Below are positions 6,264 to 8,224 of a stretch of DNA of 64,000 bases, in pieces. Positions within the stretch are counted from its first letter, which is position 1. Every line of letters begins with the position of its first letter. The notes below the pieces were generated by a model. The model did no database searches and was not told where the DNA came from. It saw only the letters and a program-made list of their open reading frames with translations. The position numbers and the translations under genes were made by a program. The DNA comes from an uncultured Gammaproteobacteria bacterium (lineage in GTDB: Bacteria > Patescibacteriota > Microgenomatia > Levybacterales > UBA12049), in assembly GCA_964521295.1 (NCBI GenBank), contig CAZFRF010000001.1:334146-398145 (forward strand), given 5' to 3'.

Positions 6264-6923
6264 TTATCTTTCTTTTCTTACAAATGGGCAAGAGGTGATC
6301 ATTGCCTCTTTACATCTTTGTGCCCAAGGAGCAAGCTCGGAAACAGCTTGAATCTCTTGTAATAAAACTCTTCTATCTTCTTGCTGTTCACTAGTTCTGT
6401 ACCTAAAGGGAGCATTACCATCGATAACCTGATCGATTAAAGGCTGAGTTGCTGAAACTCTTAATCTCTCTAATGGAACAGGATTTTGAATCAAAACTTC
6501 AGGCAAAGAAAAATCTTGACCCCCTCTTAATCTTTCGAGGTAACTATCAAGAGATAGTCCATGAGACAAATATGCAAAATCTCCATCCTCACGCGCTTTA
6601 CTATCATAAGCACAGTATGTATTGGTAAATAAAATATAGGCGTAATCATACACCCTAATTCTATCCGTAGGAGCCACTTCTACCTCTAACAACATTTGCC
6701 CAATACCTGAATCCAAACTAATTAAATCACTCCAAGCATCGGGATAATCTTTATTAAGTCTCCAACTAGCAGGTAAGGGATCTGTTAGGGTAAACACTGA
6801 ATAAGGAGAGTTTCCCGATTCGGTTGGCATACTTTTTGGCACTAAACCTTTAAATCCCTGCTCGCCAGTTCCTTGACTAATATGTTTCCACAAATTTGGC
6901 CTTGTATAATGATATAAAATCAT
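6264..6923 (-). CDS. hypothetical protein (219 aa), Arg/Gly/Pro-rich; possible ART-fold (DarT-like) enzyme
   Basis: N-terminus MILYHYTRPNLWKHI resembles the DarT/DUF4433 YH[IF]TH..NL start. PEVLIQNPVPLE resembles the DarT catalytic AEFLVHRFFPWE segment. Weak, motif-level similarity only. Confidence 0.4.
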   Translation of the reverse strand: MILYHYTRPNLWKHISQGTGEQGFKGLVPKSMPTESGNSPYSVFTLTDPLPASWRLNKDYPDAWSDLISLDSGIGQMLLEVEVAPTDRIRVYDYAYILFTNTYCAYDSKAREDGDFAYLSHGLSLDSYLERLRGGQDFSLPEVLIQNPVPLERLRVSATQPLIDQVIDGNAPFRYRTSEQQEDRRVLLQEIQAVSELAPWAQRCKEAMITSCPFVRKER

Positions 6924-6961
6924 AAGAAGATATTATACTATGAGATTAATTTAAATGCTAC

Positions 6962-7435
6962 TTAGAGGCTAGGTAGATCAACAGTTGAGGAGTAAACACT
7001 GCCATCTTCTTTGGTTATTTTCAAAACAATTTTTACATCTTTAACATCTGTATCGTAGTGACAAACATCCGAACATGTACCAAGTTTAATTTCTTTTGTG
7101 GCAGGAGCCTTCTTTAGGTCTAACATACCAATTACTCCTCTTGGTATATCGCCTTTAGCCAAATATGAAAGCTCATAATCAATTGAAGTAATACCTTCGA
7201 TTTTTTCCACTGTTAGGATAACAGTTTTTTTATCAGGACCTGCTTCTAAAGTTAATCCTAGATCCGCAGCTGCGATTGTTGGAATTGGTGCTTCAGATGG
7301 CAAAATATTATCGTTAACTTGCTGTGTTTTACTCGTATTTAATGTTTTTACTACAAAGAATCCTAATATAACTACAACTAAAACTAATACACCTAAAATC
7401 CCGAGGAGTTTTTTATTATTTAATAAGTTCGCCAT
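6962..7435 (-). CDS. membrane-anchored secreted protein (157 aa), unknown function
   Basis: Basic N-terminus followed by a TM helix (LLGILGVLVLVVVILGFFVV), then a Pro/Ala-rich linker and a beta-rich domain. Confidence 0.45.
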   Translation of the reverse strand: MANLLNNKKLLGILGVLVLVVVILGFFVVKTLNTSKTQQVNDNILPSEAPIPTIAAADLGLTLEAGPDKKTVILTVEKIEGITSIDYELSYLAKGDIPRGVIGMLDLKKAPATKEIKLGTCSDVCHYDTDVKDVKIVLKITKEDGSVYSSTVDLPSL

Positions 7436-7480
7436 GTATTTAAATTAGCATAAATAATTTAGCTTTCTTTGTCAAGTAAA

Positions 7481-8188
7481 TTATTTAGAGGTAACTTTGG
7501 CAGTAGATAAAAATCTTAATAGATGCTCTCCGTATTCAAAAATATCAGGTAACCCATACCCATAATGAGCCCCAGGATATTCATAAAGACCAAATCCAAA
7601 ACGTTGTTTTGCAAAATCTGAATGAGGTCTAAGAGTAGTTAAATCGTATCTTTGATCAATTGCTGCTCCTGTTTCTGAATCTGGAACCCTAAGCACTAAC
7701 TCACCACGAGAAAAAACTGTTGGATGTTTAAAATCTTCTTCAGTATCTCCTCTATAAACATTAATAGGTGTGTCTCTAAAATATAAACTAACTAGTGGAT
7801 TTAATGGATCAGGAAATACAACATCCATAAAAATAGGCGCCAAATGACCTCCTCTATAAACCTGCTCTCTTACAGTCATTTCTACTCTATGAGGACTTAA
7901 AGCGTCTACTGGGCCATGAATTACACCTTGGTATTCATGTTCAATCATAGACTCTACAATTGTATATCTTGGCTGCATATTACCCATAGATGGAGGCGCT
8001 ATTTCAGCTGTATTAACACCTACTAAAGTAAGACTTGCTCTATTTTTATTACCCCATTCTCTTAAACCCAAGAAAACATTTCCGCCTCTTAAACGGGCTT
8101 CGTGGTGCAAAGCAGAATCCTCTGTCCCACGCGATTGAGAAGCTGCAATTCTTTTGGCTAAACCAGGAGTATATCTTTCAAGTTTCAT
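7481..8188 (-). CDS. hypothetical protein (235 aa), His/Tyr/Gly/Arg-rich, unknown function
   Basis: Long ORF with complex, non-membrane composition. No motif I can assign. Its own promoter-like element lies upstream. Confidence 0.45.
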   Translation of the reverse strand: MKLERYTPGLAKRIAASQSRGTEDSALHHEARLRGGNVFLGLREWGNKNRASLTLVGVNTAEIAPPSMGNMQPRYTIVESMIEHEYQGVIHGPVDALSPHRVEMTVREQVYRGGHLAPIFMDVVFPDPLNPLVSLYFRDTPINVYRGDTEEDFKHPTVFSRGELVLRVPDSETGAAIDQRYDLTTLRPHSDFAKQRFGFGLYEYPGAHYGYGLPDIFEYGEHLLRFLSTAKVTSK

Positions 8189-8224
8189 GAATGTATTATA
8201 CCAAAAAAACTATTATAGGATCAA
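8189..8224 (-). promoter_or_regulatory. putative leaderless promoter: -35 TTGATC, 18-nt spacer, extended -10 TGGTATAAT, 6 nt to the ATG
   Basis: Reverse complement of 8195-8203 is TGGTATAAT. Reverse complement of 8219-8224 is TTGATC. The ATG is at 8188. Confidence 0.4.

Follow-up and report, generated by a model that had tools for sequence, protein, structure and literature searches.

We analyzed three adjacent genes, here called A, B, and C, in a 64,000-nucleotide (nt) stretch of contig CAZFRF010000001.1 (the window), whose GC content is low (about 32–37%). A sequence-only reading of this stretch had described the three as a composition-distinct cassette behind a single leaderless promoter, with C resembling the DarT family of ADP-ribosyltransferases (ARTs). 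The three open reading frames (ORFs) lie where that reading had put them, on the minus strand between a single-chain glycyl-tRNA synthetase and mraZ-rsmH-ftsL-ftsI, and the peptides it had quoted from C are correct as well (N terminus MILYHYTRPNLW; PEVLIQNPVPLE at residues 141–152). Our analysis leads to another view of the genes themselves: A, B, and C are independent genes that differ in evolutionary age and do not form a module, and C most likely adopts a strongly elaborated ART-type fold, as judged from its predicted structure and conserved residues. We hold this combined reading with moderate confidence. The genes of the locus are as follows.

6264..6923, minus strand: gene C, 219 amino acids (aa), cytoplasmic, candidate ART-superfamily enzyme
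6962..7435, minus strand: gene B, 157 aa, with an N-terminal membrane anchor
7481..8188, minus strand: gene A, 235 aa, an Arg/Gly/Pro/His-rich ORFan
8232..9614, minus strand: single-chain glycyl-tRNA synthetase (GlyRS, glyS)
9645..10193, minus strand: recO
10193..12208, minus strand: DUF4012 protein
Downstream of C, minus strand: mraZ, then rsmH, ftsL, and ftsI (Pfam labels taken from syntenic loci)

The start of mraZ is most likely the ATG at 6122, which has AGGAGG before it; the ORF call reaches back to 6239, a GTG at which translation probably does not begin.

The protein family of gene C

Only four close homologs of C were found (51–69% identity), and in all of them C lies between B and mraZ. 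A profile built from these four retrieved 187 clusters at E ≤1e-3, 90 of them at ≤1e-10, among 1.84 billion representative proteins; the members are mostly 200–230 aa long and align end to end. Conservation was counted in an alignment of 86 sequences, where Y6 and E142 are invariant and H5, L27, P51, W54, L78, V91, D93, P141, and Q160 are kept in at least 90%. The family consensus reads mkvYHYt...W..I...GL.P...a.FaLl.P.P..W..N...G.LLLEi...V.D...ysLPEV.I...iP.eRI.vS..QPLlE...iPEL..W. Compared with the closest relative of the window (locus L001), the ratio of nonsynonymous to synonymous substitution rates (dN/dS) of C is 0.19, which indicates purifying selection, three to ten times more relaxed than that on glyS (0.05), B (0.06), or ftsI (0.014).

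We also scanned GTDB genomes with a degenerate DNA pattern, which yielded 27 loci that hmmsearch separated into nine true members of the family and 18 chance hits. The true members come from a Patescibacteria-group metagenome-assembled genome (MAG; L016), two Saccharimonadales MAGs (L019 and L035), a Gracilibacteria MAG (L025), a Nanoarchaeia archaeon (L024), and MAGs labeled Gammaproteobacteria (L013, L028, L029, and L036). The synteny of L013 and L028 is clearly that of Levybacteria, and they are probably mislabeled as uncultured Gammaproteobacteria; the same may apply to L029 and L036, which bear this label too. Both L013 (CAYYJP010000017.1) and L028 (CAZIOR010000016.1) show the gene order recO-glyS-gmk-B-C-mraZ-rsmH-ftsL-ftsI, with near-identical proteins. 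Two further family members (P0143 and P0256; L042 6001..7293) are fused to a C-terminal AAA_5 ATPase of the dynein/MoxR/McrB type. On the L042 contig, whose source organism has a larger genome, there are also genes for a guanylate cyclase and for ankyrin-repeat Ser/Thr kinases. There was no match to C among 50,697 phage records, and literature searches on DUF7002 and on ADP-ribosyltransferases together with Patescibacteria returned nothing relevant. As judged from these searches, the C family is an undescribed one, present in the candidate phyla radiation (CPR)/Patescibacteria, in at least one DPANN archaeon, and in some larger genomes.

Predicted fold of gene C and its possible likeness to ADP-ribosyltransferases

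The AlphaFold2 model of C, calculated from the 86-sequence alignment, is confident, with a predicted local distance difference test score (pLDDT) of 94.4 and a predicted template modeling (TM) score of 0.89. Its elements follow the order beta1-alpha1-beta2...beta3-beta4-(helical insert)-beta5-beta6, with strands at residues 2–7, 42–46, 77–82, 89–93, 141–145, and 154–156, a helix after the first strand (9–17), a three-helix insert (95–133), and C-terminal helices. As a replicate, we modeled P0151, a homolog with 30% identity to C (pLDDT 96.0). Two conserved segments of C lie on strands of the model.

6903..6914, minus strand: codons of Y4-H5-Y6-T7, on beta1, with the proposed NAD-binding His (compare YHGT, WHGS, and YH[FI]T of other ARTs)
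6489..6506, minus strand: codons of L140-P141-E142-V143-L144-I145, on beta5, with the proposed catalytic Glu

C thus combines a conserved beta1 histidine (H5, in at least 90% of sequences, on predicted strand 2–7) with an invariant acidic residue in beta5 (E142, on predicted strand 141–145), and we infer that they would be equivalent to the catalytic positions of ARTs. Most of what is known of the ART superfamily concerns toxins, PARPs, DarT, and Tpt1. With its His...Glu members (diphtheria toxin/PARP/DarT-like, and pertussis S1), C shares a hydrophobic-Y-H-x-T beta1 strand followed by a helix and an invariant Glu that opens a later strand, with hydrophobic residues after it (LPEVLI; compare EYI, ETIL, and EFLV), and its His-to-Glu spacing of about 137 residues compares with about 120–150 in known ARTs. 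It differs from them by a long insert between beta1 and beta2, by the three helices inserted ahead of beta5, and by about 55 additional helical residues at the C terminus, and it has no secretion signal, toxin delivery domain, or immunity gene. If the ART-type fold is correct, the histidine of the beta1 YHYT motif (H5, with Y6) would hold NAD+, the aromatic pair F44 and W54 after beta2 would stack against the nicotinamide, and E142, the invariant LPEV Glu on beta5, would activate the transfer of ADP-ribose, or the cleavage of NAD+, onto a target.

Fold comparisons with Foldseek led to the same superfamily at scores below significance. For C against the PDB, the best matches were OspC3 (E 0.29) and the S1 subunit of pertussis toxin (E 0.31), with an RES toxin lower in the list and none of them significant; against BFVD, the second match was a phage protein annotated as "putative RNA 2'-phosphotransferase" (E 0.07, probability 0.93, TM score 0.55 on the target). 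The replicate model P0151, compared with 350,542 PDB chains, gave 23 matches at E ≤10, the first 17 of which all belong to the ART superfamily: pertussis S1 14 times, TccC3 once, and TkoKptA twice, with E values of 0.1–4 and TM scores of 0.23–0.33.

We then compared profiles using hhalign. The C family aligned with the NAD lobe of Tpt1 (four PDB sequences) at P = 0.009 over 25 columns and with three DarTs at P = 0.017 over 16 columns, the latter in the N-terminal part only and with the Glu strands unaligned; these alignments pair the C motif with LYHGT of Tpt1 and IYHIT of DarT. As a positive control, DarT against Tpt1 gave P = 0.003 over 17 columns of the same beta1-alpha1 element, and as a negative control, the C family against the B family gave P = 0.5 over a single column. 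For DarT, we used sequences from PDB alignments and put the catalytic Glu back, as the DarT crystal constructs carry Glu-to-Ala mutations at this position. In Pfam searches with the 86 members, the only recurrent matches below threshold were to DUF7002 (2/86, best E 0.0085), AvrB_AvrC (2/86), and Tox-ART-HYD1 (1/86, E 0.023). The matches to DUF7002 and Tox-ART-HYD1 (PF15633) come from relatives, far below the gathering thresholds, and C of the window itself has none. The DarT of Mycobacterium tuberculosis also matches DUF7002 (PF22531) below threshold, with its N-terminal 60 residues (E 0.0023), so DUF7002 appears to share the N-terminal ART element, which suggests that DUF7002 may itself be an ART/DarT-like family.

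Several observations weigh against an ART-type fold for C. None of the structural matches is significant (best E 0.03 in BFVD and 0.1 in the PDB; TM scores 0.23–0.35; root-mean-square deviations 7–13 Å); the hhalign matches span just 16–25 residues, with HH-suite probabilities of 3–4%; Tpt1 and DarT were picked as comparators after the fold hits had been seen; and C has no hit above threshold in Pfam, NCBIfam, PADLOC, or PHROG, while its family profile finds nothing in the PDB. The low scores favor an explanation in which C is an enzyme or binding protein of a non-ART fold whose resemblance to ARTs, confined to a short beta-alpha element, arose by convergence or chance, and the large insertions relative to minimal ARTs (137 residues between His and Glu, three C-terminal helices) fit that explanation too. 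We regard it as unlikely, though a serious competitor, given three observations that oppose it. Models of two proteins sharing 30% identity both rank ARTs first (17/23 for P0151), the most conserved positions (H5/Y6 and E142) sit on the strands that bear the His/Arg and the Glu in ARTs, and the hhalign scores of C are on a par with those of the DarT–Tpt1 positive control.

Within the ART superfamily, membership of C in DarT, as the sequence-only reading had suggested from its N terminus, did not survive. Neither C nor any of its 86 relatives hits the DarT profile (PF14487/DUF4433) even at E values up to 10, whereas three genuine DarTs score 6e-32 to 3e-53 in the same type of search. The DarT structures 7OMV, 7YK3, and 8BAQ are absent from the Foldseek lists of both C and P0151, and no DarG-type macrodomain antitoxin lies beside C, whose neighbors are B (no domain) and mraZ. 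C resembles DarT in the N-terminal YH[IFY]T strand and helix, and toward the end of its core it has a strand with a Glu followed by hydrophobic residues that may be the counterpart of the AEFLV strand with the catalytic Glu of DarT; the DarT motifs TH..NL, PFYF, and PRSPMLY are absent from C. With no PF14487 hit, no DarG, no DarT in Foldseek, and its other motifs missing, DarT is ruled out. What does stand of the original idea is a looser ART-likeness, carried by the His of YHYT and the Glu of LPEV, which are the most conserved positions, and by fold matches that are nearly all to the ART superfamily, if below significance.

It is improbable, in our view, that C is a Tpt1/KptA-like NAD+-dependent 2'-phosphotransferase or a related RNA-end enzyme. 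This explanation draws on the phage "RNA 2'-phosphotransferase" among the top BFVD matches, on TkoKptA among the PDB matches, on the NAD lobe of Tpt1 as the best hhalign match, in which LYHGT....I...GL.P of Tpt1 aligns with vYHYT..W..I...GL.P of C, including the GL.P after helix 1, and on the character of C as a stand-alone, housekeeping-style gene without an antitoxin. Opposing it, there is no hit to the Tpt1/KptA profile, PF01885, against which E. coli KptA scores 3e-47. The N-terminal RNA-binding lobe of Tpt1 carries the catalytic Arg-His-Arg-Arg tetrad, and C, which starts at beta1, lacks this lobe and has a core twice as long. A beta5 Glu is typical of diphtheria toxin, PARPs, DarT, and pertussis toxin and not of Tpt1, from which the invariant Glu of C is absent. 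Tpt1 itself is ruled out for C, which has neither a PF01885 hit nor the N-terminal RNA lobe.

Probable independence of genes A, B, and C

We compared the gene order around A, B, and C across genomes, a check set beforehand for the cassette idea. C is found beside B only in a subset of genomes, namely the window, L001, L002, L003, and L013; B occurs without C in L004–L008 and, in hundreds of genomes, without A. Two divergent loci, L009 and L010 (GCA_016182405.1 and GCA_016204485.1), carry a B homolog (hmmsearch E 1e-33), a divergent 154-aa ORF, a C homolog (33% identical), msrA, and mraZ in this order (L009 2638..3829). The nearness of B and C in these lineages indicates that their proximity is old within this group; therefore, B and C stood ahead of the dcw cluster before the clade of the window arose, and many Levybacteria have lost this arrangement. 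That B and C are also near one another in so divergent a lineage counts against full independence, and some functional link between these two is conceivable. Outside the group formed by the window and L009–L010, none of the C-family loci that we found shows such proximity. There (L016, L019, L025, L029, L035, L036, and L042), the neighbors of C relatives include RadA, a HAD hydrolase, an MFS transporter, a Trp-repressor-like gene, a small membrane protein, a sub-threshold nucleoside deoxyribosyltransferase-like protein, and others. The loci examined revealed no recurrent partner of the C family, and neither B nor mraZ lies near the C relatives in the seven loci just named; no macro domain was seen near C-family genes in the Pfam tables of L001–L010 and L042 or among the ten neighbors scanned in the other loci.

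The three genes are therefore not conserved together (A is an ORFan, B turns up without A and in most cases also without C, and elsewhere C has no B beside it), and the proposal of a three-gene module under one promoter fails. A toxin–antitoxin or multigene defense module was rejected on the same lack of co-conservation and on a PADLOC scan of A, B, and C that returned no hits.

The sequence at the gene starts bears on the same question. The promoter-like elements are as follows.

8195..8224, minus strand: promoter-like element of A (TTGATC, 18 nt, TG-extended TATAAT, 6 nt, ATG; no Shine-Dalgarno motif, leaderless type)
7447..7475, minus strand: promoter-like element of B (TTGACA, 17 nt, TATGCT, 11 nt, ATG)
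6932..6941, minus strand: -10 box of C, ATAGTATAAT (TATAAT, 8 nt, ATG)

The element described ahead of A is present (TTGATC-18 nt-(TG)gTATAAT-6 nt-ATG, 8224..8186), and only its role as the promoter of a cassette falls away, since it is generic and each of the genes has its own. Promoter-like hexamer pairs are not enriched in 5600..8600 (eight, versus 9.7 ± 3.3 in shuffles). Among the 58 window genes (ORFs of at least 100 aa), a TATAAT-like box ending 5–10 nt before the start codon precedes 19, and only nine have a motif like a Shine-Dalgarno sequence; mraZ, with AGGAGG, is among the few with a strong one. Given these 19 boxes, the leaderless-looking start is the normal gene-start design of this genome and not a mark of the A-B-C locus. 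The decamer ATAGTATAAT of C is invariant in the five genomes in which C adjoins B, although the C proteins of these genomes are only 51–69% identical, and this invariance suggests that C is likely a leaderless transcription unit of its own. We consider that A, B, and C are each probably transcribed from their own -10 box as leaderless mRNAs. Adjacency and a promoter-like motif, in an AT-rich genome with leaderless starts, do not define a module.

The description of the trio as distinct in composition holds for A and C and not for B. The summed fraction of Arg, Gly, Pro, and His is 0.281 in A (z = 3.6, the highest among 55 window genes), 0.210 in C, and an ordinary 0.127 in B, against a window mean of 0.150 (SD 0.036). 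At the nucleotide level, GC content and GC content at third codon positions (GC3) are native-like in all three genes and B is inherited vertically, and on these grounds we rejected a horizontally acquired island. It is very improbable that A, B, and C were acquired horizontally as an operon encoding a DarT-like NAD-dependent toxin (C) and its antitoxin or targeting partners (A and/or B): the shared strand, the short spacers (38 and 45 nt) in which a search found no terminator, the unusual amino acid composition shared by A and C, and the adjacency of B and C in at least five genomes are outweighed by an A without homologs, by a B that hundreds of genomes carry without A and that L004–L008 carry without C, by C relatives elsewhere that lack B, a macrodomain, or any shared neighbor, by the missing DarT-profile and PADLOC hits, by native-like GC3, and by the conserved -10 box of C.

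Gene A matches only itself in a search of 5.8 billion clustered proteins, and it recurs with identical sequence in identical context in one independent Logan assembly; sequence searches of Pfam, NCBIfam, PADLOC, PHROG, and the PDB gave no match. It is nonetheless almost certainly a real coding gene, judging from its 235 open codons, in a genome whose base composition would make about 7% of codons stops at random, and from its GC3 of 0.169, far below its overall GC of 0.373 (genome GC 35%). A borderline tblastn match links residues 125–218 of A to the middle of LysB from a Giles-type mycobacteriophage (L041 541..1776; E 7e-3, 30% identity over 101 aa), with 20/20 hits falling in the same gene of related phages; we treat this similarity as a lead and not as a finding.

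The slot between glyS and B (7436..8231 in the window) varies among relatives. Where the window has A, L001 has an unrelated antisense ORFan of 196 aa (526..1116), L002 (6703..7386), L003, L008, and L013 have gmk (guanylate kinase), L006 has an ORF of 112 aa (4607..4945), and L004 and L005 have nothing. From this pattern, A appears as a genome-specific ORFan in a slot of gene turnover between glyS and B. We also considered A as a decayed gmk or as kin of the 196-aa ORF of L001, and rejected both, as no similarity was found. The 196-aa ORF overlaps the glyS stop tail-to-tail, as gmk does, and resembles the C terminus of Gmk very weakly (E about 0.3). There is no gmk within the 64-kb window.

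Gene B has at least 325 homologs at E ≤1e-3, several of them named Candidatus Levybacteria, and almost always sits immediately ahead of mraZ, or ahead of C followed by mraZ, as in L001–L008 and L013 and in all the long contigs examined. From the names of these homologs and from synteny, the window would belong to a Levybacteria-type genome of the CPR/Patescibacteria. Its conserved domain of about 110 residues, C-terminal to the anchor, contains the invariant motif LGTCSDVCHYD (CxxxCH; residues 118–128) and is presumably extracytoplasmic. No family scored above threshold in Pfam, NCBIfam, PADLOC, or PHROG, and the B profile finds nothing in the PDB. On this distribution, B is a vertically inherited, membrane-anchored protein found Levybacteria-wide, and its constant place in front of the dcw cluster may point to a role related to the envelope or to division.

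Meaning for the C family and its hosts

The genomes of CPR bacteria and DPANN archaea are tiny, and many proteins conserved in them have no known function. With about 190 clusters, a confident model, and a conserved His-Tyr...Glu constellation, the C family is a concrete target for biochemistry. If the ART-type fold of C is confirmed, a new family would be added to a known superfamily. More tentatively, we propose that it is an undescribed clade of the ART superfamily that comprises stand-alone, antitoxin-free, NAD+-using enzymes of the His...Glu type, kept by selection in CPR bacteria and DPANN archaea and fused to AAA_5 in a few larger genomes, which would modify an endogenous or host target in normal physiology and not act as toxins. 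If this is true, ART-type proteins without an immunity partner would represent a nontoxin branch of the superfamily, with a function that is probably housekeeping or directed at the host.

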